Source: an uncultured Candidatus Saccharibacteria bacterium
GTDB taxonomy: Bacteria > Patescibacteriota > Minisyncoccia > Phycocordibacterales > UBA2100
NCBI GenBank assembly: GCA_964586255.1
Contig: CAZPGE010000005.1
Span: 12,775 to 76,774, forward strand
Length of the DNA: 64,000 bases
Direction: 5' to 3'
Part shown: positions 5,865-62,897 of the stretch, piece by piece
Numbering within the stretch: position 1 is the first letter of the stretch
How the letters are laid out: each line of letters opens with the position of its first letter
Notes under the pieces: generated by a model
The model's input: only the letters and a program-made list of their open reading frames with translations
Databases searched by the model: none
What the model was told of the DNA's origin: nothing
Program-made: the position numbers and the translations under genes

Positions 5865-5928
5865 TGTATCGAATATTCCACAACATTTCTTCATACAGGA
5901 TGTAAGAAGTGGTTGGTATACTCCGTCT

Positions 5929-32288: not shown

Positions 32289-33270
32289 GGCAATCCGTGC
32301 GTGCGCGGAGGCGGCTCTCAGCGCGCACGTCTTTCCTGGTTGCGCGGTGGGTATCGTGACGCAAGATGGCGCGACCGAGGTGGTGTCAGTGGGCACACAT
32401 ACGTATGAAGTGAATGCTCGTGCGGTGAACGCGGCAACGCTCTACGATGTCGCATCGATTACGAAGTCTATTCCCACTGCATCTCTCGCACTTGTTCTCG
32501 TCGAAGAGGGAGTCCTGTCGCTCGACGAATTGGTAAAGACCTCTCTACCAGAATTGCAGAACGACTTCGGAGCAAGGATACGCGACCTGCTCACCTACAC
32601 GGTAGCCGGCCCACGACTCTCCGAACTCAAAGAGCTTCCCGCAGAGAAGATGCTCGCTACAATTTTTGAGCGCGGTTTCGAAGGGCCGCCAGCCGAATCG
32701 AAATACACCAATCTTCCGGCACTTCTCTTGGGAATAATCCTCGAGCGTCGCATGAATACCACACTCGATATTCTTGCGAGACGCTATTTCTTTGACCCGC
32801 TAAAAATGCACGATACGGCTTTTTATGCCGGCGCGGCCTTTGTGCGCGCAGCACCGACGGAGTTGGAGGACTGGCGCGGCATGGTCTCCGGAGTCACGCA
32901 CGACGAAAGTGCATATACCCTCGCCAAGGCCGGACGCGCAGCAGGTCATGCGGGGCTTTTCTCCACAACAAACGATATCCTCGTATATCTGCACGCTCTT
33001 TTAGAAGAAAAAGACGCGCGTATGCGTGCGATTGTCCGCGGCGCTGAACAGGGTCTGGGTTGGCAGGTAGGGCAGGCCGCATGGATGGGCAACCTCGCGA
33101 GCCCCACGACTTTTGGGAAGACCGGCTTTACGGGTACGAGCGTCGTGGTCGACAGAGAACGTGGTGTCGCATTCTCCATCCTTTCCAACAGGACGTACCC
33201 GAAGCGACCGCCTATTGATGATGCGATTTACGCTTTCCGAGAAGACATTGCCAACATCATCCTTACCTGA
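32281..33270 (+). CDS. Serine hydrolase, beta-lactamase/PBP4*-like family
   Basis: SxxK active site (ASITKS) and a later YAL/GHAGLF region. Confidence 0.7.
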   Translation: MREAIRACAEAALSAHVFPGCAVGIVTQDGATEVVSVGTHTYEVNARAVNAATLYDVASITKSIPTASLALVLVEEGVLSLDELVKTSLPELQNDFGARIRDLLTYTVAGPRLSELKELPAEKMLATIFERGFEGPPAESKYTNLPALLLGIILERRMNTTLDILARRYFFDPLKMHDTAFYAGAAFVRAAPTELEDWRGMVSGVTHDESAYTLAKAGRAAGHAGLFSTTNDILVYLHALLEEKDARMRAIVRGAEQGLGWQVGQAAWMGNLASPTTFGKTGFTGTSVVVDRERGVAFSILSNRTYPKRPPIDDAIYAFREDIANIILT

Positions 33271-35029
33271 CAGTGACACTCTTCGCGATATTTCGCGGTT
33301 TGTCGACGTTGTGCTTTAGGGTGACCGCCATGAAATACGCGAGGAGCTGGAGGGGGATTACGTTCACGATTGCGGTCGTCTCTCCGCTGTCGGGCACCGG
33401 TAGGTAGTGACTGAAACTCTTCTCTGACTCAGGCGCGATACCAAATACACTGGCGCCGCGCGCATGTACCTCGTGTACGGCATTGAGTGTGTCGTTCTTT
33501 ACGGCGTCGTTGGATACGGTAACTATCACATTCACGCCCGGCTCCATAAGCGTAATGGCGTAGTGCTTGAGATCGCCCGCAGCGATTGCGTGCGCGTGCA
33601 CATACGCACCTTCAATCATCTTGACCATGCCTTCCTTGATGATTTGGAGATTTTGACCTTTTCCAAGGAGGAATATGTCTTTGCTTTTTGAGAGTCGCTT
33701 TGCATGTTCCTCTATACGTGACATGTACTTCTTGTCGCGAAGCATGTTCTCGATCGTGAGGGCTGTACGCTTGAGATTCCGTTTGCCCGCGGGAAGCGTG
33801 CCCTCTACAGCCTTCGCAAGGAGATACCCCCACGCAATCTGGGAGACAAATATCTTTGTCGACATGACGCAAATTTCGGGACCGGCGTGTGCCATGAATG
33901 CATAGTCGGAGAGGCGCGTCATCATGCTGCCCGGCATGTTTACAAACGACGCTATCTTTGCGCCGCGCTTCTTTGCTATCTCGAGTACCTCGAGCACGTC
34001 GGCTGTCTCGCCGCTTTGCGACGGCGCTATGAGCAGGTCCTTTGGACCTATGAGATCCCGATAGTCAGATGCTTCAGCGCCGATAAGTGAAATCGCGGGG
34101 ATGCCGCCGTACACGCGGAGGTAGTACGCGATTTGTGCTGCTGCGGCGCCCGCCGTGCCGGAGCCGATGCAATACACGGCTCGCGCTTTTTTGATGGCGC
34201 GGGCAAGAGCCATGTAGGTGTCCTCGGATTCGTGGGTCACCTGTCGCAATACGAAAGGTGCTTCGTGGATCTCTTTGAGCATGAAGTGCGGATACGTACC
34301 CTTGTCGACCGCGACGTCTTTGAGCAGATTCTTCTCGCGCTTTGCGCGGATCGCCTTGCCGGAAGCTATGTCGTACACGGCAAATGTGCCCGCCTGGTAC
34401 ACGGCCATCTGGCCGTTGTCGAGTACGAGTGTCTCTTTGACGTGGGGCGCAAATGAGAATATGTCGGAAGAGAAGTACACTTCCGAATCTTTTGCTCCGA
34501 ACCCGACGACAAGGGGGGAGCCGTTGCGTGCGGCGATAATGTCGCCGTTTTTCGCAAGCACGATGATGGTGTTGCGACCCGTGAGTTCTTTAAACGCAGC
34601 ACGCACGGCGTCTTTCAGCGGGAGTCGTTTGGAGAGCTTCTTCTCGACGAGGCGCACAATCGACTCGGTGTCGGTCTCCGTGATGAATCGGTAGCCTTCT
34701 TTGATGAGCGCACTTTTTATCACATCGGCATTCTCAGCGATGCCGTTGTGCGCCAGGATAAATGATTTGTCAGAAGAGAAATGCGGATGCGCGTTGATTT
34801 CTGTGACTGCGCCGTGCGTCGCCCAGCGGGTATGTCCGATACCAACCGAGCTCTGGGGGAGTGACTGCGTCTTTCCGACGATGCCGACTTTCTTCCCGAC
34901 ATGGAGACCGTCGTGCACCACGCCGATACCCCAACTGTCGTACCCGCGGTAATCAAGCCTTTGCAGTCCTTCCAAGACCGCACCCGCGGCGTCTCGCTTT
35001 ACGCCGGTATACCCAAATATTCCACACAT
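33263..35029 (-). CDS. glmS: Glutamine--fructose-6-phosphate aminotransferase
   Basis: MCGIFGYTG N-terminal nucleophile, SIS domains, C-terminal ...KSVTV(E/R). The true start is the Met of MCGIF at 35027-35029; the upstream MRAIALIR extension in the ORF track is spurious. Confidence 0.9.
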   Translation of the reverse strand: MCGIFGYTGVKRDAAGAVLEGLQRLDYRGYDSWGIGVVHDGLHVGKKVGIVGKTQSLPQSSVGIGHTRWATHGAVTEINAHPHFSSDKSFILAHNGIAENADVIKSALIKEGYRFITETDTESIVRLVEKKLSKRLPLKDAVRAAFKELTGRNTIIVLAKNGDIIAARNGSPLVVGFGAKDSEVYFSSDIFSFAPHVKETLVLDNGQMAVYQAGTFAVYDIASGKAIRAKREKNLLKDVAVDKGTYPHFMLKEIHEAPFVLRQVTHESEDTYMALARAIKKARAVYCIGSGTAGAAAAQIAYYLRVYGGIPAISLIGAEASDYRDLIGPKDLLIAPSQSGETADVLEVLEIAKKRGAKIASFVNMPGSMMTRLSDYAFMAHAGPEICVMSTKIFVSQIAWGYLLAKAVEGTLPAGKRNLKRTALTIENMLRDKKYMSRIEEHAKRLSKSKDIFLLGKGQNLQIIKEGMVKMIEGAYVHAHAIAAGDLKHYAITLMEPGVNVIVTVSNDAVKNDTLNAVHEVHARGASVFGIAPESEKSFSHYLPVPDSGETTAIVNVIPLQLLAYFMAVTLKHNVDKPRNIAKSVTVR

Positions 35030-35483
35030 ACGTATGAGTGCGATTGCTCGCAATTATGGAAAAGCGACTCCCGTCATTTTTTCTTTGTGCCCGCCGTTAC
35101 CGACGGGATTTCAAAAAAATGTTTCGGTAGGGAGACTACCGGAGGGTTTCCGCAGATACTATGCGCCGCTTCGCATGTCCGATTGTCGTCCGCCATTCGC
35201 CATCCGGCGAAGGCGGACCGACCCCTCTCCTCGTATCCCCAAATATGGGGCCACACGCTCTAAGAAACACATTCGCTTTCCGTTTTCTAATCACCGTCCC
35301 TGGGACGGCTCTCCACACAATACATCCGGTACGGAGGTGTGCAATGCACCCTTGCGCGATTCTCATGGTGTGCTAATTTCGAGATATGGCCCAGCGACGT
35401 CATATGATGAAGCGTCCTACGACCTCCCCTGAGGCGGCTGTTGCCATGCACGAGTAAACACATCATCCCGAGCAAGACAATCA

Positions 35484-49514: not shown

Positions 49515-49838
49515 ATGAAGAAACCGGTACAAAAATCTAATACATCCAAATTCACATTTAAGCCTGCGGGTGACCGTGTGCTCGTGAAGCCTGAATCGGT
49601 CGAGGAAAAGACTGCCTCCGGCATCATCATTCCCGACACAGCTCGCAAGGAAAAGCCGGAGACGGGAGTCGTAGTGGCCGTAGGCGAAGGTAAGCGCAAT
49701 GAGAAGGGCGATGTGCTCCCTATGCGTTACAAGGTTGGGGACAAGGTCATGTTCTCGAAATACGGATACGACGAAGTGACCATTGAAGACGAGGAGTACT
49801 ACGTCGTCTCTGAATCAAATATCCTCGGCACGTTTTAA
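49515..49838 (+). CDS. groES: Co-chaperonin GroES (with a 12-aa N-terminal extension)
   Basis: FKPAGDRVLVKP...ASGIIIPDTA...GVVVAVGEG...GDKVMFSKYG. Confidence 0.9.
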   Translation: MKKPVQKSNTSKFTFKPAGDRVLVKPESVEEKTASGIIIPDTARKEKPETGVVVAVGEGKRNEKGDVLPMRYKVGDKVMFSKYGYDEVTIEDEEYYVVSESNILGTF

Positions 49839-49856
49839 TCTTTAATTTCTAACACC

Positions 49857-51497
49857 ATGGCAAAACAGGTAATTTTCGACCAGGAAGTCAGGCAGCGCCT
49901 CAAGCGAGGTGTCGATATCGTCGCAGGGGCAGTAAAGGTAACGCTCGGTCCCAAGGGCCGAAATGTTGCGCTCTCAAAGTCGTGGGGCGGACCGACAATA
50001 ACCAACGACGGCGTGTCTATCGCCAAAGACATCACACTTGCCGACAAGTTTGAGGACATGGGCGCGTCTATCGTGAAAGAAGTTGCGACCAAGACCAACG
50101 ACAAAGCGGGCGATGGTACTACGACCGCTGTCATCCTCACGCAGGCAATCATCCACGAGGGTATGAAGAAGACCGCGATGGGCGCCAACGCGATGATGAT
50201 TCGCCGCGGCATCGAATCTGCTGCAAAAGATGCGGTGGAAGAGCTCAAGAAGATTGCCAAGCCGGTGAAGGGTAAGAGTGATATCCGCCAGGTAGCGACA
50301 ATCTCGGCCGAGAGCGATGAGCTTGGTAAGACGATTGCAGATATCGTGGAGAAAGTCGGAAAAGACGGTGTTGTCACCGTAGAGGAGTCGCAGTCTTTCG
50401 GCATCGAGAGTGATTTCGTCGAGGGCATGGAGTTCGACAAGGGATATGTCTCGGCATATATGATGACGAACCCTGAGCGCATGGAAGCCGAGGTGAAAGA
50501 CGCTGTGATACTCATCACCGACAAAAAGATTTCCGCGGTCAAAGATATTCTCCCGATTCTTGAGAAAGTAGCGCAGACCGGCAAGAAAGATCTCGTCATC
50601 ATCGCAGACGACGTTGATGGGGAAGCGCTCACCACATTTGTGCTCAACAAGCTCCGCGGCATATTCAACGTACTCGCAGTGAAGGCGCCCGGATACGGCG
50701 ACAGAAAGAAAGAGATTCTCAGCGACATTGCCATCACGGTCGGCGGTCAGGTCATCTCCGATGATCTCGGACTCTCTCTTGAAAAGGCCGAGCTCACGAT
50801 GCTTGGCCGCGCCAATCGCATCGTCGCCACGAAAGACTCGACGACCATCGTCGGGGGCAAGGGAAAGAAAAGCGATATCGAGAAGCGTGTCGCGCAATTG
50901 CAAGTGCAGCTCGAAAATACAGACTCAAAATTCGACAAAGAGAAGTTGCAGGAGAGAATCGCAAAACTCACGGGAGGCGTGGCGGTCATTCGCGTCGGTG
51001 CTGCCACTGAGACAGAGATGAAGTACCTCAAGGACAAAATAGAAGATGCAGTCAATGCGACGAAGGCGGCTATCTCGGAAGGTATCGTACCCGGCGGCGG
51101 AGCGACGCTCGCCAAAGTGTCGGCCAAACTTCAGAAGAATATGGAGAAGGTCTCCAAGGAAAGCGGCGATGAGTTTGCGGCAGGTTACAGCATTCTCGTC
51201 GGCGCACTCACGGCACCGTTTAAACAAATCGTGCGCAACGCGGGACGAGAAGACGAAATGGTCTTGCTCGCAGAAATCTCTGGCAACAACATGAAGGGAT
51301 TCAATGCGGCGACGGAAGAAGTGGTGGACATGATAGAAGCCGGCATCATCGACCCGGTGAAAGTGACCCGCAGTGGTGTGGAAAACGCCGCGTCTGCCGC
51401 AGCGGTACTTCTCACAACTGAGGCTGCGGTCGCAGATATTCCTGAAGAAAAGAAGGATGCAGGACAAGGTGGCATGTCGGGTGGCATGGATATGTAG
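49857..51497 (+). CDS. groEL: Chaperonin GroEL
   Basis: MAKQVIFDQEVR...AGDGTTTA...; C-terminal GGMSGGMDM. Confidence 0.95.
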   Translation: MAKQVIFDQEVRQRLKRGVDIVAGAVKVTLGPKGRNVALSKSWGGPTITNDGVSIAKDITLADKFEDMGASIVKEVATKTNDKAGDGTTTAVILTQAIIHEGMKKTAMGANAMMIRRGIESAAKDAVEELKKIAKPVKGKSDIRQVATISAESDELGKTIADIVEKVGKDGVVTVEESQSFGIESDFVEGMEFDKGYVSAYMMTNPERMEAEVKDAVILITDKKISAVKDILPILEKVAQTGKKDLVIIADDVDGEALTTFVLNKLRGIFNVLAVKAPGYGDRKKEILSDIAITVGGQVISDDLGLSLEKAELTMLGRANRIVATKDSTTIVGGKGKKSDIEKRVAQLQVQLENTDSKFDKEKLQERIAKLTGGVAVIRVGAATETEMKYLKDKIEDAVNATKAAISEGIVPGGGATLAKVSAKLQKNMEKVSKESGDEFAAGYSILVGALTAPFKQIVRNAGREDEMVLLAEISGNNMKGFNAATEEVVDMIEAGIIDPVKVTRSGVENAASAAAVLLTTEAAVADIPEEKKDAGQGGMSGGMDM

Positions 51498-51676: not shown

Positions 51677-52702
51677 ATGAAGAGGCGCAGGAACATACAG
51701 TCTCCTCTTTCGCGTCCCGGTGTCCCTGTAGTGCTCGCTGTCGCGGCGTTTATGCTACTCGTTGGCACAGCGAGTGTATACGGCGTGCAGTCGCGCGGCT
51801 CCATGCTTGCTGCAGCGGCGGGCGGTGGTCAGTGCGAACCAAAATTTAAACAGTGCATGCAGCAGGATGTGCCGAAGAAAAAAAAGACTGCAGCGCAGTG
51901 CGAACAAGAATTCCAAAAGTGTGTTCTTGTCGACAATAAATGTAAAGACAAGACGGGGATTTCTGGAGGGCAGACCTGCAACAAAGCGCCGGACTGCCAG
52001 ACGCATTGCACTGAATCGGCGACCGGCAAGGGTGCAATACTTGATTGTTGCAAGGGAGGCGCAAAGCATGTGAATTCATGCCCGGATGAAGTAGATGGAA
52101 AGTGTAATCCGCAAAAAAAGGAACTGGGCAAGGAAGGTGAACAGAAAGGAGGGATGCCGGAACTTCCCAAGCCACCTGAATCAAAAGATGGGGGAGGAGG
52201 TCAGCCGCAACAGCAGCCGTGCGGCACAGACTCAAAGACTCCTGGAGTAGCCCCCGCTGAGGGTGGCGAGAAGAGAAAGGATTGCCCACCGGAGACAAAA
52301 TCGGGAGTCTCGGGTTTGTTCGACATGTTTTCTCCGAGCGGAGAGGGGGGCGCATCTTCGCCGAGAGATACGGTATCCTCGGCACTGAGCAAAATTAGCT
52401 CCTTTTTTGGCGGCTCGCAGTCCAGTTCTGAATCCGCTACCAGCAATGAAAACACATCGTCCTCTGGGACCGCAAACACGGGAGGTACAACTGACAATAG
52501 CAGTGTAGTTTCAAGATTGAGTGCACAAGAATCGACGCAAGGCCAGTCTGGGTCGGGCACGGGAGGAAGTACTCAGCAAAACTCTCTTACGACAGGATTT
52601 ACCAATGCGGGGGCAGGGCAGAGCTCGCCACAGTCTACGACGATTCTCAGCTCGGTTGTCACTCGATTGAAATCGGCCCTCTCGTGGCTCAGCGGGCTCT
52701 AA
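51677..52702 (+). CDS. Secreted cysteine-rich protein with Ser/Thr/Gly-rich C-terminal half, hypothetical
   Basis: Signal anchor; about 16 Cys in CEPKFKQCMQQ...CKDK...CNKAPDCQTHC...CCKGG...; TACAAT 8 nt upstream; AT-richer than its surroundings. Confidence 0.55.
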   Translation: MKRRRNIQSPLSRPGVPVVLAVAAFMLLVGTASVYGVQSRGSMLAAAAGGGQCEPKFKQCMQQDVPKKKKTAAQCEQEFQKCVLVDNKCKDKTGISGGQTCNKAPDCQTHCTESATGKGAILDCCKGGAKHVNSCPDEVDGKCNPQKKELGKEGEQKGGMPELPKPPESKDGGGGQPQQQPCGTDSKTPGVAPAEGGEKRKDCPPETKSGVSGLFDMFSPSGEGGASSPRDTVSSALSKISSFFGGSQSSSESATSNENTSSSGTANTGGTTDNSSVVSRLSAQESTQGQSGSGTGGSTQQNSLTTGFTNAGAGQSSPQSTTILSSVVTRLKSALSWLSGL

Positions 52703-52765
52703 GTTTTTCTAAAGCATTCCACATGCGGCGCCACGAATGTGGCGCCGCGCTGGTATGATTGGGCT

Positions 52766-55700
52766 ATGTCGAGCCTCGCAAGGCTATTCTTTCTTGTACT
52801 CATCAGTACATCTTTTTCGCTCCCGGGAAATGTGGCTGCGCTTTCGGCTGAGGCGAATGCGATGTGCAAGCCATACATCGCGGAGTGCCCGTGCAATCAG
52901 GTGCTGAATAAATGGAGGTTCATGCCCGGTCAGCCGAAGTGTAAGGCGGGTGGAGAGAAAAACGGCGCGGGATATAGCAATACACATGCGTGCAAGGTGG
53001 GTGTATGTAAAGACGTCACAAACGAACACGTGACACAGGGAGTGTGCATTGCGGCCGGGAAATGTGAGGGGAAGCTTGCAGACGACAAACCGGTACAAAA
53101 GACTGACGTGCCGGTGAAAGACGGCGATAAGCCGGTGACCGCTGAGCCGCCGCCTCCGCCATCGGTATCAGACACGGGTGATGTGACAGGTGGCATGCCG
53201 CAGAAACCGGAGGTGCCTGAGACGACTGTGCAAGACCCGACAAAGGACCTCCAGGAGACACCTGACACCGAAACCCCCATCCCGTCCGGCTCTGCGAAGA
53301 GTGTCGAAGATCAGTTGAAGGAAGCGGCAGGCGAGCCGAGTCTCTGGGAAAGGTGGTTTGGAGGTGAAACTACGCCGAAGCCGGAGACTCCTGCACAACC
53401 GGATGCTCCAGTGGGGCTCGACGGGCAGCCAGTGCAGACACTCCAGCCCGACGCAGTAGCCGACCCGCAATTGTCAGACACGGGAGTCGTTCAGACTCAG
53501 CCGGGAGAATCTACTCACACATTTGGTCAGCCTGAGGAGACCAAAACTGTCCCCGCGGAAGATGCTACGTGGTGGGGTGCGGTAAAAGATACTGCTTCTA
53601 ATGTTTGGGAGGGGGCGAAAGATATTGCGGCGAACGTGCGCGACACAGTGGCGGGCGCGTTTACATCGGATACACCATCGACTCCAAGTATCGGTGAGAT
53701 AGAGATGCCACCGCCGCCGGCGGAAGTGCCGACGTTAGCAGACACGACAACCGGTGGAACACCAGAGCCGGTACCCGCAGGCGCCAGCGCGGAGCCATCC
53801 GCGACGCAACTCAATACACCGGGAAATGTGGGACCAGTGCCGTATGCAGAAGAGCTTTCGAAACTTGGCTTCGGCAATGACTTGCTGGGAAGCAGGCTCA
53901 AAGAATTGAATGGACTTATTCAAAATGGCAATGATCGGATTGAAGCGGGAAATGCGGACCTCACAACGCGAAAAGAGTCGCTCGATGCGCAGTATGCGCA
54001 GCTGAAGAGCGCGTGTGCTGCGAATACGTGCACACAGTCACAAATAGACACATACAAAGAACGAGCAGCTGCGTACGACCGAGATGCAGCAACGCATAAA
54101 AAACTCGCAGAACAAACGAGGGAATACGTCGACTCCGCGAAAGCGATAGCCTCTGCATTGAACAAGCCAACAGACCTCTCTGCGTATACGGGACGCGTGC
54201 CTGATACACCGGAAAATAAGTTTGTGAGCGATGTATCGCGCGCGGCGCTCGGAGAAATATCGAGGCAAGAGGTGAATGCATTCTGGAACGATACGCCCGC
54301 AAGTGACCTGGTGACAGAGAGATCTCGAATCGCGGGGAATGCTTTTGAGGCGGCGACACACAATGTCACTCCATCACAAGTTGCCGACGCGTTTGGAGAT
54401 TCTGCGCGGCTCTCGGATATTCGGAATCAGACTGCAATTACAGCGGCACAGGAGCAGCTTCGACAAATAGAAACGATTCGTTCGGATACGCCGATTAGCC
54501 AGCTCACACCCGAGCAAGCGGACCTCCTCTATAGAGAGCCGCTCATACGCGAGGAGCTCACTCGACTCGAAAGTGAGTCGCAGTCTCGTGCAGAGAGGAC
54601 TGAGAATATCCAACACGCTCTCCGCAACAGTCAGTATGGAGAGCAGCTGGCGCGCGCGCTGACTACCGAACCAAAAACGCCAGTTGAGCGACTTATACAA
54701 GAGCAGCTCTATTTGAAAGCGGCGGAATTATCGCGCAACAACTTCGCCGCCGAATTGCTTAGGAATACGGAGCAAGCACCGACGGGGCTTACGCCGGAAG
54801 ATTATTACATCCCGGTGGATACCGGGAAAAATGTGTACACGGATGGGGCAGCACAAGCGGATAGGCATATCGGAGAATTGACGGGTGCTCTCAAGCCGTC
54901 ACCGGAAACACAGAGTCTCTTAGACCGCGTAAATGGCAACGAATCATTCGGCCGATATGCTCCGCGAGCGCTCGCTGATGCGACAAATTTCATCGCGGAC
55001 TTGCCCGCAAAAGGATTGGAAGCATTGGGTGTGAACAGCACGGTAGCACATGTGGCCAACGGCATTCTCAACCCGGTCAAATGGGGAGCGGCTGCCTATG
55101 ATGCGTACCTCACGCTTTCGGGCAACCCAAGTACAGAGAGAATGCTCAGCGAGTATGGCATGTCGTCTGGAGAGAGGACATTCGCGCGAGTGATGGATTA
55201 CGCGTCGATAGCTGGTGCGGTCGCCCCATCGCGTGCCCTCATGGGTCTTGGGTCGACCAATGAAATCGGTGTTGTGGCCGAATCGTCGCGCGCATTTACA
55301 TTGAGTGATTCGGTCGCGACGAATGCAGCACGTGTAGAATTGCCGGCGCGAGATTTCGGAGCGGGCGCGTATAAGCATGTCGGCGATACGCCGCTTGGTC
55401 CTGTCTATGCGGCCGACACGCTCCCGTCTGTAGCATCGAGGGTTTCAAACACGGAACGGCAAGCCATCGAAGCGCTTAGCGGCAGGTCGCTCACATCTGC
55501 CGACCGCACGATACTCTCGCAAGTGGGACTTGAAGCGCGGCCATACGGAACCGTACAGGCGGAAATAACGAGAGGTGCGGGCGTGGCGCAGATTACCGAA
55601 AGTGTAAACATCCAGCGAACGGCGCTGGTTAACGGCAATGGGGAAGTAGTGGCTGTCCAAAGCCGCGTCCTCGGCTCTGGCGCGGCAAATTTCGATGCAA

Positions 55701-58700
55701 TGGAAAGATTTGCAATCGTTGCAACTCCGGAAAACACAGGAGTATTCGCATCGCTGCGCCAGCAATTCGACAATTGGTTTGGCCGTTCGGAGCCGACTCC
55801 GAGCGCGCGGCCAACGACGGCAGATGCGACACCGTCTTCCGCTGGTGATACGACACCTTCGGCACGCCCCGCCGATACTCCGGCGCTCCTAGAGTCTCCT
55901 CGAGGCACGACTCCATCTCGTACCGCAGACGTGCCTGATGGTGCGGTGCCGACAACTCCTCGAACAGCTGCAACAGACGGGCAAATCAGCGAAATCGGTC
56001 GTCCACAAAATCTCCCAGATGCACCCGCTGCTCCTCGTGATGTCACGCCAGCGAATACGCCTGATGTCCCTGTGGTCCAGACACCCGACGCGCCTCTTGT
56101 ACCCGACGGAGCGCCAGGAGTGATTCCTGCAGAACCTCTTGCCTCTACTTTGCCGACTACTGGATGGAACCCGAGTGAGTCGCTTGCGAGATTCGCGAAA
56201 GCGAGTGTCGTAGCATTTGGTCTTCTTCACAGCCCAGTGTCTCCGCTTGTCGATACGGCCGTAGCCAGAGGTGTATCAGGCGTGCCGGGCACCGTCTCAG
56301 TAAAAGCCTGTCTTTCAGACTGGACGTGTCTTACGCCGGAGACGGGACTCGGTAAGCGATACGAATTGAACAACGTAGGGTCCAATGGCGGGAACAGGAC
56401 CGCATCTGGCTACCAGCCAGGGCCAAAGGACATGCTCATCGCTTCGCAGACATATCCACTCGGCACATATGGAGAGCTATGCAACGGCGGCAGATGCACG
56501 AAGGTATTTGTAGGCGACACAGGCAATTTCAATCAGGCAAAATATCGCTACGCCAAATTTGACCTGCTCCCACAAGTGTCTTCGGTCGTAGGTCCGACGG
56601 CTGCACAGGGGAGGACGACGATGACGTTTACGCCGTATGGAATAGCAAAGGTAGAAGATGCCGCGGCAATTACGCGAGCAATGAACGCGGGGACTGCATA
56701 CCCCGATGCGGTCGCGCAGATACAGAACAAAGTAATTGCATACGCGCCGGGGAAGAGCGTCGAGCCGACAGCTGTAGCACAGGCTGCGCCGCCCGTCCCG
56801 CAAACACCGACGAGAGTCGCAGATATATCGCCCGCAGTACCCGCAAGCCAGCCAGCGGCAGCGGGGGAGCCGCGGTCTGCTGGGCCTCGTACAGCACTTC
56901 CGGCAGAGCTCGACACTTCGACTTGGACCACGAGGCGCATAGTCGATTCTTTTGTGCCGACGAAGACACCGGTACAGGTCGTCGCTGCAGAGCTCGCGAA
57001 TCCTACGGCAGAAATAAATGCGCTTTCATCGGCGCTCGTCGCAGACGGAATCATCCCTCGAGGCTCGACGGTCACTGCGGCCGCGGATGGGACGACGAAT
57101 GTACGAATTCCGAGCGGGGAGGTGCAGACACTCAAGGTAGTGGTTCCCGAAGCACCTGCCAATCTCAATATCACAGCACCGCGTGTCAGTGTCGGCGAGC
57201 TCAGAAAAGTGTACGCGCAGACAAAGAGTCCCGACATAGGCCGGGTGCTCAGGGCAATTGATGAGCGCGGATTCAATACCGTCCCTGACCGCGCATTTTT
57301 GAACAACGACACTCTCAAACAGCTCGTCGGAGTCTTGCGCGACTACGACAGAATGTTCCCCGGTCAGGTGCCTATCATCAATGAATTGAGCGACACTATC
57401 GGGCGCCCCTTCTCTAGCACTCACACATTTGGTCAAGCTATCGACTTCCGTGCGCGCGAGTGGAGCCCGCAAGTGAAAGCGTTGCAGAATATCTTGCTCT
57501 CACATGGGATGGCGACCCCATATTCGCTCTTCCACGGTACCGGCCCGCACTTGCATGCGGACGGGGGAGAAGTGAAAGCCGCGGATGCCTCGAATCTCAA
57601 CATCTCATACAAGACCGCACCGCAATACGCGCTGCACGATGCAGAGGGTGCGCAGGTGGGGAAACAATTCGCGCTCGGTGGACCGAAAGCTGCGCCAGTA
57701 CCGCCGACAAAGGTGGCAACCGCCCCGCTCCCGAAGCCGTCTCCAGCCCAAGTCGCAATCGGTACATTTGAACCACCGGCGCCGACAAGACCCGGCCCCG
57801 CATTTACTGCGGACAATGTGCCGGCCGAATGGAAGCAGTCGCCAATCACTGTGGCGGAAGCGAAGCCTCCCGTTACAGCCCCTGAGCCTGCGGCAGTGAC
57901 CGTGCCTCCTGCGCCAAAGGCGCCTATCGCTAAACCCGCGCCGATTCAGGCTGCGGAGATTGTTCCTGTCCCGAAGCCACGACCAACTGTATCCTCGACG
58001 AAAGTACCTACAGTCACAAAAGCTGCGACTCGCAATGTTCAGCCGAAAGCAAAGAATCAGGTTGCAGTCACGAAGCAGTTGCCCCCTGTAGATACGCGGT
58101 CAGCCGATGAAATCGCAGCGCAGATGCTCGCACTCAACAACAAAGTAGCTGCACAACTGAAGGTTCCGCCCGCCGAAGCGATGCCGAAGCTTCTAGAGAG
58201 AAATACTAAAATTGGCCAGTCTCTGAAGTCCGTGCAGGCTATAAAGAGCGAGCTCGATGAGCTGGCTAATAAAGTAGTGAGTACGTCTTTGAAGTCTCAG
58301 ACACTCTATGACCAGGGCAACACCGCCGCTTCTAAGGTTGAAGGAAACAAAGTCCAACCTCTTTTCCAGCAACTCGTGGCGCATACAAAGCAACTTTCCA
58401 CGGAAGCTCTTACTGAGGCTGATATTAAAGCGGTGCAAGCAGCGGCCGGTCGTGCTAACTCGGCAGCAAATGTACTCGAGGACACCATTCATCCAGACAA
58501 GGTTGTGGGTATCTATATGAACTCGAAAAATCCCGACGGCACGGCAAAGTTTGCGGACCAAGCTGCATTCGTGAAGTACGTAAAGGGGCTGGCGGGGAAT
58601 TTCCGTGGCAGTGTGGCGCAAGTTTCGTCACCTTTGTCTACCAAGATCAAGTCGTATCAAGTGGAGATTGCTTCCAATGACGCTCTCCTCAATCAATCAA

Positions 58701-61700
58701 AGCAGTTGATGGCCGCAAAACTCAATGCGGATAGCTTGGGTGCCAAGTACGCGCTCGAGCAACTTGAAGGACAGAAAGCGACCGACGAGGCGAATGCGAG
58801 AATAGCGGCCCTCCCTCCTATTGCGGGCCTCGAGGACCTCCTCCAGTCGCCGATTGTTTCGCGAGAAGCTCGTGATGTACCGCTTTCAGAACTTTTTTCC
58901 GAGCTGAAGAATGACGTGTTGGCATTTGCACGGGAAGAGCTCGGCTTGTTTGGCGGTCCGGGTTCTGGGGGACGCACTGTCACCGTAGAGGTCGCGCCAT
59001 CGGTAAAAACTCCTGAAGTCGCCCCGGCGAAAGTTGCCGCGGTTGAAGTGCCCCCTGCTAAGAGTGCTCAAGTGCGGCCGGGGAGTGCCGCACCTACATC
59101 CGCCGTACCATCCTATGTGCCGCGCATCGCGCGATTTGGCACGGAACCTGGCACGGGACCAGTCGTGTATTCTACGCCGGCGAATATTCCTGTATTGCAG
59201 GCGCGCATGAATGTGGCGATTAGGCCTCGCAAGCCTGAAATACAAGCGGGAAGCGGAGGGCAAATATCCCCGACGCCGCGGCTCGAACCACTTCCACCGG
59301 TGCCGAGCGCAGAAGCTGCTGCGCTCGCGAGAGAGCAAGCCTTGCGTAACCCAATCGTAGGTACCGATGATTTTGCGAATTTCCCACGGCAAAAACTCGA
59401 GGGAGAGGATGCACTGCTGCAAGAGGCCGCGATTGCCAAATATGTATCAAACAAAGAGCAATTGCTCGATACGTATGAAGCCCATTTTGGTACGAAGGTC
59501 GTCAATCCCGACCTCGCGAGGCTGCTCTTCAGGGATATGGGCTATACGGGAGTCAATTCGGCCGCAGTACAAAAAGTTGTCGCCGACATGACCGACGAGC
59601 TATGGAAACGTGCGCTCGCAAACAACCCTGAAGATTATGTTGTCCTCTACACAGGTTCGGCTGGCTCGGGTAAATCAAGCTCGATAAACAACGTACTTCC
59701 TGAGATGGAGGCACGGGCCGCCGTGATTATGGATGGCACTCTCTCCAACAAGGTGCTCGCCGAGCAGAGAATTGCGGAAGCGCTCGCGGCAGGGAAGCAA
59801 GTTGAAGTCATTAATGTGTATCGCGATCCAGTAGACGCATGGAACAACGGCGTCATCGCTCGTATGAAAGATGCGCAGTCGATTGATGCTGGAAGAGTCG
59901 TACCCATATCGGTATTCGTAATGGGATATAAGCGTTCGATGGAAGTTGTGAATTCATTGCTTACCAATCCGCGTGAGGGTGTGCATGTGAGTTTGATAGA
60001 AAACGTGATTCCCGGCTCACCGAGTGAGATGAGTCCGGAGCGTTTCCAAAGCATCCGGTACTCATCGAGTATAGAGCGAACGATTCGCAACAACACCGCT
60101 GATCTTCTTGGGCGTGGAGAAATCACACCACGGCAGTACGAGGCAATCACGGGTGCGGAAGCGCCAGGCAAGCTCGCGCTCGTCGCCGACGAGCCGATCG
60201 TGCCGGTGGATAGAGAGATTCCATCTCTTACCGAGCCGGTAGCGACTGCTCCGGAGGGCCCTGTCGCGGCACTTTGGACAGGGGATGGTGTCGAGGAAAG
60301 GCTCGCATGGATACGCGGGGTGCCAGAGAGAGTCACATTAGGTCTGCAAAACTCAGTGAACAAAATTCGTGATCTAATTCCAAGCGTACAAGAGCAGACG
60401 TATCTTCCGCCTGCCGTGACACAAGCGGAGGCCGAGAGCCTTGCGCGGATAGAAGGGGCACTTCTCGATATAGACGCACGATTTCCACGGGAAGTACCCG
60501 ACGATGTGCTCGCCACACTTGAGAGAGAGCTGCAGCAGCAGGTGGCGGGGCTGAGACCATCTGAGATTGACACCATCGCGCAAAAAAGTCTCTGGCAGCG
60601 TACGAAAGAATTCTTCTCACCGAGTAAAGAATCGACCGGTGCCGCGGTGCGAGAGCCCGAGCAGCTCCAACTGCCGCTCGATGAGCCCGTACAATCGGGA
60701 CGACCGCAGGTCGATGCTACTCCCGAGCAGGTGCCAACCTCGCGCCAAGGGGAGCTCTTCCCCGAAGAGCAGCTAGAACTGCAATTCCCGACGACGGGGG
60801 ATTATGTTCAGGCGAATCTGCCGCTCGATGAGCCAGCGCAGCCGACTCGAATTCCTGACACACCAATCCAGCGTGAGCTTCCCCTCGAGTCGCCGCTTAC
60901 GGAGACGCAGCTCGAGCTCCCGCTCACTCAGAGACAGCCCGGTCTGATAGAAAGAATTCGCAATCGTATTGTAGGTACGTCGAAACCATCCGTCACCGAA
61001 CCCGTATCAGGTACAAACTATCGATACAATCCCGTCACCGACCGCTTGGAGCCAATCGCTGTCGCGCCATCGCCGGCATCGACACCGAGCCCGGCGCCAG
61101 CCGCGGAATCACGGTCGCTCACCGTGGGAAGTACCGAGGCATTCGGCGGGGCTCTACCGCCAGCAAGCGGGAAAACGCTCGCAGGGAAATTTGGCAGCGC
61201 TTCGTGGGGCACCGCAAAATTCCTGTGTGGTGGATGGAGGCGTGCAGCGTTTTGTGGCGCCGTGGGGACAGGAGTATATCTGACTGCTTCGGGGTCATCG
61301 GACCCAACATCGCCCGCAGCACCTACTGGGGGCAGTCAGCCAGGCACGGTGAGGCCGACGACTGCAGGTACTCAGACACCTACTGCGCCTTCCGCTCCAG
61401 GCACGACCCCTGCCGGCTCCGTATCGAGTCCAGTGACGCCTATACCAACACCGACTCCGACACCGACTCCGACTCCGACACCCGTCCCAACTCCTACGCC
61501 GACGCCGGCACCAGCTCCAAAACCAGGGAATCAACCAGCTCCTTCTCCTGCGCCGGTTCCGACGCCCGTGCCACTACCGAAGCCAAGACCGGACGGAGCA
61601 CCTGCGCCTGTGCCCGCACCGCAGCCTCAGCCGCAACCTGCTCCGGTCCCATCTCCTGCACCGGCACCGTCACCCGAACAGCCAACAAAGTCTGGCTCAG

Positions 61701-62095
61701 GAAGCTCGGCAGGCAGTATCGGGAGCCTGCTTGGCTCGCTCATGAACTATCTCGGTCTTGGAAACAATAGTCAGCCGAAGCCTGCGCAGCAGCCGACGAC
61801 GCCGACCCGAACTCCGACATCAACATCGACACCGACAACGGTAAAGCCGATTGTGTCGCTTGTGCCAAATCCTGCCCGTGTGAAAGCGGGATCGACCGCA
61901 GTGCTCTGGTGGGCAAGCATCGGTACGACAGAGTGCTCCGTATCGGATTCTGAAGGCACTGTGCTTGTGAAAGGTTCTTCGACTGGAAAGGCCACGACAG
62001 CAGCAATACAAGCAACATCAAAATTCACCGTGACCTGCAAAGCTCGTTCTGGCGAAGACGTCCGCGCGGAGACGACCGTCTCGCTCGCTGAGTAG
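52766..62095 (+). CDS. Giant secreted multidomain protein (about 3110 aa): Cys-rich N-domain, coiled coils, 3D domain, LAS-type Zn-metallopeptidase domain, zeta-toxin/CPT-like P-loop kinase domain, PT-repeat linker, C-terminal Ig-like domain
   Basis: One uninterrupted ORF. Signal peptide MSSLARLFFLVLISTSFSLPGNVAA starts at 52766, with TATGAT 6 nt upstream. The 3D-domain motif YGELCNGGRCTKVFVGDTGNF...FDLL is near 56.45 kb. The LAS motif STHTFGQAIDF (H-x6-D) ...HGTGPHLHADGG (H-x-H) is near 57.4-57.56 kb. Walker A VLYTGSAGSGKSS then AVIMDGTL is near 59.65 kb. (PT)n runs 61.44-61.52 kb. Confidence 0.8.
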   Translation: MSSLARLFFLVLISTSFSLPGNVAALSAEANAMCKPYIAECPCNQVLNKWRFMPGQPKCKAGGEKNGAGYSNTHACKVGVCKDVTNEHVTQGVCIAAGKCEGKLADDKPVQKTDVPVKDGDKPVTAEPPPPPSVSDTGDVTGGMPQKPEVPETTVQDPTKDLQETPDTETPIPSGSAKSVEDQLKEAAGEPSLWERWFGGETTPKPETPAQPDAPVGLDGQPVQTLQPDAVADPQLSDTGVVQTQPGESTHTFGQPEETKTVPAEDATWWGAVKDTASNVWEGAKDIAANVRDTVAGAFTSDTPSTPSIGEIEMPPPPAEVPTLADTTTGGTPEPVPAGASAEPSATQLNTPGNVGPVPYAEELSKLGFGNDLLGSRLKELNGLIQNGNDRIEAGNADLTTRKESLDAQYAQLKSACAANTCTQSQIDTYKERAAAYDRDAATHKKLAEQTREYVDSAKAIASALNKPTDLSAYTGRVPDTPENKFVSDVSRAALGEISRQEVNAFWNDTPASDLVTERSRIAGNAFEAATHNVTPSQVADAFGDSARLSDIRNQTAITAAQEQLRQIETIRSDTPISQLTPEQADLLYREPLIREELTRLESESQSRAERTENIQHALRNSQYGEQLARALTTEPKTPVERLIQEQLYLKAAELSRNNFAAELLRNTEQAPTGLTPEDYYIPVDTGKNVYTDGAAQADRHIGELTGALKPSPETQSLLDRVNGNESFGRYAPRALADATNFIADLPAKGLEALGVNSTVAHVANGILNPVKWGAAAYDAYLTLSGNPSTERMLSEYGMSSGERTFARVMDYASIAGAVAPSRALMGLGSTNEIGVVAESSRAFTLSDSVATNAARVELPARDFGAGAYKHVGDTPLGPVYAADTLPSVASRVSNTERQAIEALSGRSLTSADRTILSQVGLEARPYGTVQAEITRGAGVAQITESVNIQRTALVNGNGEVVAVQSRVLGSGAANFDAMERFAIVATPENTGVFASLRQQFDNWFGRSEPTPSARPTTADATPSSAGDTTPSARPADTPALLESPRGTTPSRTADVPDGAVPTTPRTAATDGQISEIGRPQNLPDAPAAPRDVTPANTPDVPVVQTPDAPLVPDGAPGVIPAEPLASTLPTTGWNPSESLARFAKASVVAFGLLHSPVSPLVDTAVARGVSGVPGTVSVKACLSDWTCLTPETGLGKRYELNNVGSNGGNRTASGYQPGPKDMLIASQTYPLGTYGELCNGGRCTKVFVGDTGNFNQAKYRYAKFDLLPQVSSVVGPTAAQGRTTMTFTPYGIAKVEDAAAITRAMNAGTAYPDAVAQIQNKVIAYAPGKSVEPTAVAQAAPPVPQTPTRVADISPAVPASQPAAAGEPRSAGPRTALPAELDTSTWTTRRIVDSFVPTKTPVQVVAAELANPTAEINALSSALVADGIIPRGSTVTAAADGTTNVRIPSGEVQTLKVVVPEAPANLNITAPRVSVGELRKVYAQTKSPDIGRVLRAIDERGFNTVPDRAFLNNDTLKQLVGVLRDYDRMFPGQVPIINELSDTIGRPFSSTHTFGQAIDFRAREWSPQVKALQNILLSHGMATPYSLFHGTGPHLHADGGEVKAADASNLNISYKTAPQYALHDAEGAQVGKQFALGGPKAAPVPPTKVATAPLPKPSPAQVAIGTFEPPAPTRPGPAFTADNVPAEWKQSPITVAEAKPPVTAPEPAAVTVPPAPKAPIAKPAPIQAAEIVPVPKPRPTVSSTKVPTVTKAATRNVQPKAKNQVAVTKQLPPVDTRSADEIAAQMLALNNKVAAQLKVPPAEAMPKLLERNTKIGQSLKSVQAIKSELDELANKVVSTSLKSQTLYDQGNTAASKVEGNKVQPLFQQLVAHTKQLSTEALTEADIKAVQAAAGRANSAANVLEDTIHPDKVVGIYMNSKNPDGTAKFADQAAFVKYVKGLAGNFRGSVAQVSSPLSTKIKSYQVEIASNDALLNQSKQLMAAKLNADSLGAKYALEQLEGQKATDEANARIAALPPIAGLEDLLQSPIVSREARDVPLSELFSELKNDVLAFAREELGLFGGPGSGGRTVTVEVAPSVKTPEVAPAKVAAVEVPPAKSAQVRPGSAAPTSAVPSYVPRIARFGTEPGTGPVVYSTPANIPVLQARMNVAIRPRKPEIQAGSGGQISPTPRLEPLPPVPSAEAAALAREQALRNPIVGTDDFANFPRQKLEGEDALLQEAAIAKYVSNKEQLLDTYEAHFGTKVVNPDLARLLFRDMGYTGVNSAAVQKVVADMTDELWKRALANNPEDYVVLYTGSAGSGKSSSINNVLPEMEARAAVIMDGTLSNKVLAEQRIAEALAAGKQVEVINVYRDPVDAWNNGVIARMKDAQSIDAGRVVPISVFVMGYKRSMEVVNSLLTNPREGVHVSLIENVIPGSPSEMSPERFQSIRYSSSIERTIRNNTADLLGRGEITPRQYEAITGAEAPGKLALVADEPIVPVDREIPSLTEPVATAPEGPVAALWTGDGVEERLAWIRGVPERVTLGLQNSVNKIRDLIPSVQEQTYLPPAVTQAEAESLARIEGALLDIDARFPREVPDDVLATLERELQQQVAGLRPSEIDTIAQKSLWQRTKEFFSPSKESTGAAVREPEQLQLPLDEPVQSGRPQVDATPEQVPTSRQGELFPEEQLELQFPTTGDYVQANLPLDEPAQPTRIPDTPIQRELPLESPLTETQLELPLTQRQPGLIERIRNRIVGTSKPSVTEPVSGTNYRYNPVTDRLEPIAVAPSPASTPSPAPAAESRSLTVGSTEAFGGALPPASGKTLAGKFGSASWGTAKFLCGGWRRAAFCGAVGTGVYLTASGSSDPTSPAAPTGGSQPGTVRPTTAGTQTPTAPSAPGTTPAGSVSSPVTPIPTPTPTPTPTPTPVPTPTPTPAPAPKPGNQPAPSPAPVPTPVPLPKPRPDGAPAPVPAPQPQPQPAPVPSPAPAPSPEQPTKSGSGSSAGSIGSLLGSLMNYLGLGNNSQPKPAQQPTTPTRTPTSTSTPTTVKPIVSLVPNPARVKAGSTAVLWWASIGTTECSVSDSEGTVLVKGSSTGKATTAAIQATSKFTVTCKARSGEDVRAETTVSLAE

Positions 62096-62318: not shown

Positions 62319-62897
62319 GTGTTACTATTTTCGTATATGACAGGAATCTACATTCTTATAGGCGCAGTCGCAGTAGCGGCTCTGTTTCTCGTCTGGGCGT
62401 ACAACAGATTTGTACGGCTCACAAATCGTACCGAGGAGGCATGGTCGGACATTGATGTACAGCTCAAGCGCCGCTATGACCTCATTCCGAATCTCGTCGA
62501 GACGGTAAAGGGATACGCATCGCACGAAGCGGGCACACTGCAAAAGGTGACTGAAGCTCGCACAAAGGCAATGGGTGCACAGACAGTCGCTGAACACGCA
62601 GAGGCAGAGAATATGCTCACAGGAGCACTCAAGTCACTCTTCGCGGTGTCCGAAGCATACCCAGACCTCAAGGCCAATTCCAACTTCGTTGAGCTTCAGC
62701 GCGAACTTTCCGATACGGAGAACAAGATTCAGGCTGCGCGTCGCTTCTACAACAGTGTCGTCATCGAGCTTCAAAATGCACTTGAGTCATTCCCGACCAA
62801 TATTGTTGGCAAGATGTTTGGATTCACGACTCGTGAGTTCTTCGAGCTCGGAGAAGGTGAGCAGGAAGCTCGCAATCCTGTGAAGGTCAGCTTCTAA
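62319..62897 (+). CDS. lemA: LemA-family protein
   Basis: GIYILIGAVAVAALFLVWAYNRFVRLTNRTEEAWSDIDVQLKRRYDLIPNLVETVKGYASHE... Confidence 0.85.
   Translation: MLLFSYMTGIYILIGAVAVAALFLVWAYNRFVRLTNRTEEAWSDIDVQLKRRYDLIPNLVETVKGYASHEAGTLQKVTEARTKAMGAQTVAEHAEAENMLTGALKSLFAVSEAYPDLKANSNFVELQRELSDTENKIQAARRFYNSVVIELQNALESFPTNIVGKMFGFTTREFFELGEGEQEARNPVKVSF

Follow-up and report, generated by a model that had tools for sequence, protein, structure and literature searches.

A giant, putatively exported protein of a Parcubacteria bacterium combines a zeta-toxin-type kinase with candidate cell wall modules

Introduction

Zeta toxins of the classical zeta/PezT type phosphorylate a 3′-OH through Asp67/66 (PMC3062530). 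Another, "rewired" subclass is defined by ng_zeta1, an enzyme of Neisseria gonorrhoeae (PDB 6eph) in which two blocks of the sequence have changed places, with the catalytic Asp56 preceding the P-loop. This enzyme phosphorylates UDP-N-acetylmuramic acid (UDP-MurNAc, the preferred substrate), UDP-N-acetylglucosamine (UDP-GlcNAc) and UDP-glucose (UDP-Glc) at the 4′-OH, which leads to dead-end precursors; Lys59 and Asn75 bind the 1-carboxyethyl group of UDP-MurNAc and Asn75 reads the lactyl group (PMC5923241). The present work concerns a putative kinase of this subclass, which is encoded inside a giant gene (52766..62095) of a Parcubacteria bacterium, which belongs to the Candidate Phyla Radiation (CPR). 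The gene lies on a stretch of 64,000 nucleotides of contig CAZPGE010000005.1 (the window), to which positions refer; the gene, all its segments, the upstream neighbor and lemA are on the plus strand, and amino acids (aa) are counted from the ATG of the gene.

Zeta-kinase domains are listed among the effector domains of polymorphic-toxin-like proteins (PMC12419801), and AvrRxo1, a type III effector of the zeta family, phosphorylates NAD (PMC4938570, PMC5087710, PMC5491322). Giant multi-enzyme proteins with a proposed activity on walls are also on record, i.e., the "Archaeovorins" of predatory Omnitrophota (bioRxiv 10.1101/2023.11.21.568195). The paper on the latter makes no mention of zeta toxins, and the kinase that it contains is a pyruvate-phosphate dikinase domain.

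Judged from its sequence, the product of the giant gene appears to be a Sec-exported, disulfide-stabilised, modular cell-envelope protein, and we give a probability of about 0.5 to the reading in which it is directed against a host. Its predicted scaffold, i.e., a Cys-rich head and an RlpA-like double-psi beta-barrel (DPBB) which would bind or cleave glycan, seems to be common to a small CPR protein family. In this lineage the scaffold seems to have gained a probable zinc peptidase of the LAS/M15 type and a fully equipped UDP-sugar kinase of the ng_zeta1 type. A previous inspection of the locus without database searches (the sequence-only reading) had proposed cell wall targeting as the overall theme, and this theme holds.

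A Kinase of the ng_zeta1 Subclass

The kinase module extends over 59408..60175 (aa 2215-2470). The Pfam model Zeta_toxin (PF06414, cut-off 22.3 bits) matched the whole protein with 30.7 bits (E 2.6e-7) and the isolated segment with 37.9 bits (E 1.6e-9). The only relative found in 185,579 species genomes is an 8.5-kb contig (VMEY01000054.1) of "Parcubacteria group bacterium Athens0416_74"; it places the window in CPR, and the gene on it, referred to below as the Athens orthologue, scored 35.3 bits with the same model. With 95% aa identity between the two proteins, the kinase is called their most conserved module.

In detail, the Walker A P-loop GSAGSGKS is found at aa 2297-2304 (59654-59677), and its K2303 corresponds to K115 of ng_zeta1. 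The catalytic D2249 (59510-59512), equivalent to D56 of ng_zeta1, stands 54 residues before K2303. The two kinases have the same block order, with the catalytic Asp-x-x-Lys/Arg located N-terminally to the P-loop. Directly after the P-loop, at aa 2322-2324, follows the motif DGT; likewise, ng_zeta1 carries [DE]G[TQ]L about 19 residues after the P-loop Lys. The classical D67-type arrangement was rejected, since the DGT motif right after the P-loop is placed as in ng_zeta1. In the alignment, R175 and R181 of the phosphate-binding patch are matched by R2366 and R2377, and K59 is replaced by R2252. The residue N75 falls in an alignment gap, and the window kinase has no Asn at the equivalent spot.

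The direct pairwise similarity to ng_zeta1 is weak (phmmer against PDB, E 0.048; BLASTP not significant), and the link between the two is drawn through plasmid homologues as intermediates. A tblastn search of the kinase against plasmids returned genes annotated as "zeta toxin family" (E 1e-4) and an open reading frame (ORF) of Methylomonas (E 1e-7). The latter belongs with the gonococcal ng_zeta1 in one set and matched the window kinase with an E value of 3e-14 in BLASTP. An hhalign comparison with ng_zeta1 and two relatives reached 98.2% probability (E 3e-14, 162 columns) and covered both sequence blocks. No further relatives were found when metagenome contigs were scanned with the kinase alignment. 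The zeta-toxin-family P-loop kinase of the sequence-only reading was thus confirmed by the Pfam and hhalign matches and, at the level of sequence, is refined to a zeta toxin of the ng_zeta1 subclass, which is very likely active as a kinase.

The two proteins differ in their setting. The gonococcal ng_zeta1 is a cytoplasmic toxin of 401 aa with an adjacent epsilon antitoxin and a C-terminal OB domain, whereas the window kinase is internal to a signal-peptide-bearing protein of 3,109 aa, without an OB domain and without an adjacent antitoxin gene, and so does not form an epsilon/zeta toxin-antitoxin pair. Larger proteins with ng_zeta1-type kinases also occur on plasmids. A Moraxella plasmid (NZ_CP147512.1, 2627-5182; L014) encodes an 851-aa "DUF5710" protein with such a kinase in its C-terminal part, and the Methylomonas ORF (CP157007.1, 1408-2916; L012) encodes 503 aa and starts with one. 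Therefore, the subclass is not confined to two-gene toxin-antitoxin modules.

The kinase is preceded by a conserved segment (59102..59407, aa 2113-2214) with 91% identity to the orthologue. It looks of low complexity (Pro/Gly/Ala-rich) and yet it is conserved, and it stays with the kinase across the exchange of modules that is described below. This segment may be a pre-toxin or a translocation element.

An RlpA-Like Module Shared by a Small Protein Family

The second module (56276..56755, aa 1171-1330) is a predicted RlpA-like DPBB_1 domain followed by a two-helix extension, and contains two Cys pairs. Alone, this segment of the window protein had no Pfam match. Exhaustive comparison of aa 1170-1625 with 1.84 billion representative proteins by phmmer gave only six matches, all on aa ~1173-1367, five of them at E values of 1e-10 to 8e-16 and the sixth, P0006, at 2.7e-06. 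Four of the six homologues match Pfam DPBB_1 (PF03330, "lytic transglycolase") with E values of 2e-5 to 2.5e-7, and one of these four (P0006, 31.3 bits vs 28.8) is above the curated cut-off. When a profile of the seven family sequences, the window protein included, was compared with PDB, the RlpA-like DPBB of PA4485 (4avr) was retrieved with E 9e-11 and a phage baseplate hub with 1.3e-5. AlphaFold2 with the alignment of the seven sequences returned a usable DPBB model (predicted local distance difference test, pLDDT, 71; predicted template modelling score, pTM, 0.72).

The activity of RlpA depends on the Asp of its D[RT]G motif. In the window module the motif lies in VGDTGNF, and its Asp is the same in all seven family sequences. 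The likeness to RlpA-like proteins (PF03330; 4avr) extends to the fold and to the motif series TA[SN]G ... A[ST]Q.[LY]P ... [NG]DTG.F ... D[LI]. On the contrary, the CPR family has two extra disulfide pairs and the C-terminal extension of two helices, and in the window protein the first strand (G.ASWY) has diverged. A lytic activity of this module is putative.

The sequence-only reading had named this module a 3D domain. Domains of the 3D type also adopt the double-psi beta-barrel fold, so the fold class stands and the family does not. The 3D family (Pfam PF06725; MltA, YuiC/Sps) was rejected in favor of RlpA-like DPBB on both the sequence profile and the predicted structure: neither the window protein nor any of the six homologues matched Pfam 3D, and the 3D-domain structures of MltA or YuiC were absent from the lists of profile and structure matches. 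The first of the three conserved Asp positions of 3D domains reads ASQ in the window module.

The six homologues range from 525 to 2,486 aa and have in common the Cys-rich head (G[VI]C.A...C), together with the DPBB and its helical extension; P0005 and P0006 additionally carry a C-terminal beta-rich domain. Their middle parts vary. For instance, PG_binding_1 is found in P0002-P0004 and Peptidase_M23, a LAS enzyme, in P0006. The middle of P0005 shows an H..D..H pattern by eye (SYH...GQAADI...APH) and had no Pfam match even at E <= 10.

A Segment with the Motifs of LAS/M15 Peptidases

The segment at 57176..57640 (aa 1471-1625) is a putative zinc peptidase of the LAS/M15 type. It contains STHTFGQAID (SxHxxGxAxD) at aa 1551-1560 (57416-57445) and HLH (HxH) at aa 1595-1597 (57548-57556). 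This is the sole such site of the giant protein, the joint chance expectation is ~1.5e-6, and the motifs are invariant in the Athens orthologue. Among the members of LAS / MEROPS M15 (MepK, Pfam Peptidase_M15_2/3; VanY-type M15_4), MepK reads SYHTKGQAMDF where the window protein reads STHTFGQAIDF. The downstream H-x-H/D is HLHAD here against VHID there, with a similar spacing. Contrary to these enzymes, the window segment has no significant profile match and lacks the substrate-binding motif SGYR of M15A.

Searches of Pfam, NCBIfam and PDB profiles gave no significant match for this segment. The weak matches that were obtained concern the motifs only, i.e., PHROG 894 endolysin (E 0.045), Pfam Peptidase_M15_4 with the orthologue (E 0.11) and Escherichia coli MepK in BLASTP (E 0.011); a Smith-Waterman shuffle test against MepK gave p ~0.01. 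Matches of tblastn against phages were at chance level, a word-indexed homologue search found nothing at E <= 10, and a scan of metagenome contigs with the LAS alignment retrieved no further relatives. Of the LAS Zn-peptidase claimed by the sequence-only reading, the motifs are therefore present as stated, and the support from profiles and structure was not obtained. Based on the motifs and their conservation, a metallopeptidase of the LAS type at aa 1471-1625 is considered probable.

Purifying Selection and Exchange of a Module

Orthologous giant genes in related genomes had been suggested as a check on the locus, and a collinear one was indeed found in the Athens metagenome-assembled genome (MAG). 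The identity is 74% over aa 1-962, 81% over aa 1015-1696 and 94% over aa 2113-2473. A word-indexed homologue search with the full protein, or with the three modules concatenated, found nothing among the 8,000 candidates listed.

The codon-level ratio of nonsynonymous to synonymous substitution rates (dN/dS) between the two orthologues is lowest in the LAS-like segment (0.027), under the strongest constraint of the whole protein, followed by the kinase (0.032), the DPBB (0.041), the pre-kinase segment (0.048), the domain that precedes the LAS-like segment (0.058) and the Cys-rich head (0.096); the linkers show values of 0.08-0.19. Codon comparison thus indicates that purifying selection maintains all modules, including those without a database match.

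A variable spacer of the window protein, consisting of a Pro/Ala linker and a helical region (57854..59101, aa 1697-2112), is replaced in the Athens orthologue (VMEY01000054.1, 6460-7272; L005). There, a Peptidase_Mx1 zincin (PF15890, E 7.8e-9; HExxH in TLHHELAHV) takes the place of the helical spacer. The replacing segment is longer, and conservation is kept in the LAS-like and kinase cassettes on either side. As judged by this alignment, a whole module is exchanged between close relatives.

The Athens gene also carries a frameshifting deletion of 157 nt (L005 3474-3478 vs window 55650-55811), as a result of which it is split at aa ~962-1015 into an ORF of 983 aa and a second, overlapping frame. 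This could be a genuine pseudogene, a split gene or an assembly error of the MAG.

Integrity of the Open Reading Frame

The frame is open from GTG 52739 or ATG 52766 to the stop at 62093-62095, without internal stops, and from the ATG it comprises 3,109 codons and the stop. A perfect GC-rich hairpin of 10 bp, GCGGCGCCAC-GAAT-GTGGCGCCGC (52727-52750), is located between the stop of the upstream gene and the ATG and is not followed by a T-tract. Since this hairpin overlaps the GTG, the ATG is the likelier start. A scan of the locus for promoters and terminators was uninformative.

An exact-sequence look-up found the identical product of 3,118 aa (GTG start) on four contigs. Three independent assemblies account for the contigs that are named or shown, i.e., ENA ERZ27247837 (a 326-kb contig), Logan ERR3094292 and Logan ERR3094302. 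The single uninterrupted ORF of 9.3 kb that was originally reported is therefore confirmed. An assembly chimera or an over-called frame, whose "domains" would be chance matches to motifs, could still be suspected. All assemblies which support it are of short reads, the LAS assignment is at motif level and the related Athens MAG has a frameshift. On the other hand, the product is identical in the three independent assemblies, the domains follow one another collinearly in a MAG that was assembled separately from the data of another project, dN/dS stays far below 1 throughout the gene, and two modules have significant database matches. In addition, the PT repeat is imperfect at the DNA level and only ~70 nt long, which is too short for misassembly. 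Chimerism is thus very unlikely, and the artefact has hardly any probability left and is effectively refuted.

Export Signal, Cysteines and Linkers

The protein begins with a Sec-type signal peptide (52766..52855, aa 1-30, AxA at 28-30), which is kept in the Athens orthologue. Its core (aa 8-26) is the only segment with a Kyte-Doolittle hydropathy above 1.6, the usual level for a membrane helix; the next highest value is 1.38, and no other segment therefore scores as membrane-spanning. Similar hydrophobic segments are found at the N-termini of P0001 and P0003-P0007, and P0002 is without one. The Cys-rich head follows (52856..53080), with the motif GVCIAAGKC, and is common to the family P0001-P0007. 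All 18 Cys of the protein are locally paired: eight are in aa 34-100, and the others are 417/422, 1182/1188, 1239/1244, 2821/2830 and 3057/3091. This pairing, together with the single signal peptide, fits a predicted extracytoplasmic, disulfide-bonded protein. The signal peptide, the Cys-rich N-terminal domain, the spacers rich in Pro and Ala and the PT-repeat linker had all been named by the sequence-only reading and were found again.

Several regions have no counterpart in the databases. The large N-terminal region (53831..55780, aa 356-1005) is rich in Ala, Leu and Glu, is 68-71% identical to the orthologue, and gave no match in Pfam, PHROG or PDB. The small domain before the peptidase-like segment (56918..57175, aa 1385-1470) is 91% identical to the orthologue and was not matched in Pfam or PDB searches. 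The post-kinase region (60203..61105) likewise had no match in database profile searches. It carries three LPL[DE]xP motifs at aa 2636-2710 (~60671-60895), i.e., LPLDEP, LPLDEP and LPLESP, accompanied by QLPL/ELPL variants; these copies may form a linear binding motif. After the Pro/Thr-rich linker with the PT repeat (61298..61840), the protein ends in a beta-rich domain with one Cys pair (61841..62092), which is common to P0005 and P0006 (BLASTP 9e-13 and 2e-10). The homology of this domain to those of P0005 and P0006 is clear, whereas its description as Ig-like is weakly supported (Pfam Big_2, E 0.2).

An LPTTG at aa 1129-1133 (56150-56164) was considered as an internal sortase signal, and the stretch after it is the second most hydrophobic of the protein. 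This candidate was rejected, as the orthologue reads LPTSA and the hydrophobic stretch corresponds to the pre-DPBB segment that the family conserves; LPTTG is probably a chance occurrence within a Pro/Thr-rich linker.

Long linkers of low complexity stand between all conserved modules, and this raises the question of whether the gene encodes a polyprotein, which would be exported and then cut in its Pro/Thr/Ala linkers into wall enzymes and a toxin fragment, or a fusion of two genes which stand apart in relatives. The split of the Athens orthologue, the zincin protease located there just upstream of the kinase cassette, and the conservation of the pre-kinase segment with the kinase would fit such processing. 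However, Pfam scans recognised no autoprocessing domain (HINT, C39, S8) in the window protein, and the Athens split may be an assembly or sequencing error. Processing or fusion is thus considered improbable.

The Genomic Slot and the Target of the Protein

The full gene order RNase J - SBP_bac_5 - SecG - GroES - GroEL - [X] - LemA - Peptidase_M48, in which [X] is a secreted DPBB protein and in the window the giant gene, exists in one other CPR genome (contigs L010/L011). P0003 (993 aa; DPBB and PG_binding_1) has a gene order identical to that of the giant gene. A further genome (L007) shows [X] - LemA - M48. P0005 likewise stands before LemA and M48. In the window, the genes of the slot are at 49515-51497 and 62319-62897 and continue beyond it (L003). 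P0001 and P0006 are located outside the slot, and of the two slot homologues P0003 and P0005 only P0005 shares the C-terminal domain. Since smaller homologues occupy the groES-groEL-[X]-lemA-M48 slot, synteny and sequence identify the giant gene as the enlarged form which a conserved secreted DPBB protein has taken here.

This context is the basis of the main rival explanation, in which the protein is a scaffold for remodelling the producer's own wall, i.e., its own RlpA-like autolysin or a divisome-associated enzyme. The spacers would then lengthen the protein to span the envelope or an S-layer, and the P-loop would be non-toxic and serve nucleotide or UDP-sugar binding or regulation. The conserved slot and its occupation by P0003 and P0005 agree with this explanation. 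RlpA-like DPBB enzymes act on the organism's own septal wall. The locus lacks an immunity gene, the kinase does not stand at the C-terminus, and other PG_binding_1 proteins, called secreted, are encoded in the same window. On the contrary, the kinase keeps the catalytic residues of a bona fide toxin subclass (95% aa identity, dN/dS 0.032), there is neither ATP nor UDP-sugars outside the membrane, and the cargo differs between orthologues of 81-94% identity, which is typical of conflict-related proteins and not of housekeeping enzymes. Remodelling of the own wall is therefore regarded as possible, although unlikely.

In the host-directed reading, the giant protein would be displayed on the cell surface or released from it, and its DPBB and peptidase modules would bind and cut peptidoglycan at the site of contact. 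ATP and UDP-MurNAc/UDP-GlcNAc are available in the cytoplasm only. Since the kinase needs both ATP and UDP-sugars, it would have to act inside another cell, i.e., after entry into a neighboring host or prey cell. There it would turn wall precursors into dead-end 4′-phosphates, as ng_zeta1 does, so that the wall would be weakened from inside by the kinase and attacked from outside by the hydrolases. Export in an unfolded state would spare the producer from its own kinase, which would explain the missing antitoxin. Alternatively, the kinase may work outside the cell on a wall-associated substrate.

Several observations weigh against a host-directed role. There is no identifiable route of delivery into a target cell, and the kinase is internal and not C-terminal as in classical polymorphic toxins. 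No epsilon/PezA-like antitoxin or immunity gene is evident among the neighbors (the Cys-rich secreted protein, a 63-aa ORF and lemA). The slot is set in a syntenic order of housekeeping genes, and its homologous occupants carry PG_binding_1 or no toxin; toxin-free homologues in a housekeeping-like slot fit remodelling of the own wall. Because the MurNAc-reading Asn75 of ng_zeta1 is without a counterpart, the substrate of the window kinase may differ from that of ng_zeta1. As regards the peptidase, the assignment is at motif level and unproven: among the 1.84 billion representative proteins phmmer found no homologue of the segment, hhalign with a profile of seven M15A sequences (MepK of E. coli plus six from phages) aligned 23 columns at 4% probability, and a single-sequence AlphaFold model was unusable (pLDDT 43). 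The frameshifting deletion of the Athens orthologue is to be added to these points. The sequence-only reading had described a secreted machine for cell wall attack or remodelling, or a weapon. The giant exported protein remains from this description; the housekeeping-like slot, shared with small, toxin-free homologues, speaks against a pure weapon.

Neighboring Genes and Other Features of the Window

The upstream neighbor (51677..52702) encodes a Ser/Thr/Gly-rich protein of 341 aa (281 by the gene caller) with 14 Cys and an N-terminal hydrophobic segment, which is 78% identical in the Athens MAG. The Cys-rich secreted protein gene reported immediately upstream is thus confirmed. Downstream, lemA (62319..62897), together with the Peptidase_M48 gene beyond the window, marks the conserved slot. 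The 63-aa ORF that follows downstream was a candidate for an immunity gene and was rejected, as the syntenic locus L007 has no conserved counterpart of it.

A glmS ribozyme (RF00234, 65.5 bits; 35065-35270, minus strand) is found upstream of glmS (33263-35053, minus strand), and therefore the producer regulates and makes glucosamine-6-phosphate for its own wall precursors. Since GlmS and a D-Ala-D-Ala ligase of the Ddl family are encoded, the producer likely synthesises peptidoglycan precursors itself, which would make it a potential target of its own kinase. Two wall-associated proteins are encoded at 2301-3989 (PG_binding_1, TIG and PKD) and 5791-7437 (GH18 and PG_binding_1). The genome thus appears to invest in several surface proteins that bind peptidoglycan.

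The gene at 16522-19347 encodes a restriction-modification fusion enzyme of the MmeI type, which is complete with all five MmeI Pfam domains. It is located at the edge of a low-GC island (~18-22 kb, GC 0.46-0.48 vs ~0.55) and was probably acquired horizontally.

Comparison with Described Systems and Implications

Polymorphic-toxin-like effectors (PMC12419801) and AvrRxo1 have in common with the window protein an exported zeta-family kinase module within a larger multidomain protein of inter-organismal function. The former also show variation of the cargo between close relatives, as seen for the giant gene. However, the kinase of the window is internal, its protein has a Sec signal only and not the features of a type III, V, VI or VII secretion system, and no conserved immunity candidate accompanies it; AvrRxo1, moreover, is not of the ng_zeta1 type. 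The "Archaeovorins" are likewise of great length and come from ultra-small bacteria with a putatively predatory or episymbiotic life; in them, too, wall- or glycan-active enzyme domains are combined with long uncharacterised regions. At >30,000 aa they exceed the giant protein tenfold, contain many transmembrane segments, differ in domain repertoire and in phylum, and share no demonstrated homology with it.

Each type of module, like the idea that zeta kinases serve as exported effectors, is therefore already known. The sequence-only reading had claimed that no protein with this combination of domains is described. Indeed, none was found; the claim has to be narrowed, as zeta kinases are already recognised as effector modules (PMC12419801, PMC4938570). 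No earlier description was found of an ng_zeta1-type kinase that lies inside a Sec-exported protein, of such a kinase together with an RlpA-like DPBB and an M15-like segment, of an architecture of this kind in CPR, or of the conserved slot whose cargo can be swapped.

The occurrence of the ng_zeta1 subclass outside toxin-antitoxin modules and inside an exported protein leads to the question of how such a kinase reaches ATP and UDP-sugars. The groESL-[X]-lemA-M48 slot is a natural experiment of module swapping, with PG_binding_1, an H..D..H stretch, an M15-like segment, an Mx1 zincin and a zeta kinase, and with M23 in a member outside the slot. The three modules can be expressed separately, the candidate functions being binding or cleavage of sacculi, action as a zinc-dependent peptidase, and phosphorylation of UDP-sugars or toxicity. 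The giant protein is thus a testable candidate tool for cell wall attack or remodelling.

The attachment of CPR/Patescibacteria to their hosts and the extraction of resources from them are largely unexplained, and very few effectors have been named. Tentatively, and with doubt, an episymbiont could be envisaged that displays a wall-breaching effector of ~320 kDa, whose DPBB and LAS-type modules would cut from outside while the kinase, delivered into the cytoplasm of the partner, would shut down its supply of precursors. If this were true, the protein would be the first identified host-directed toxin of CPR and the first Sec-exported zeta kinase.

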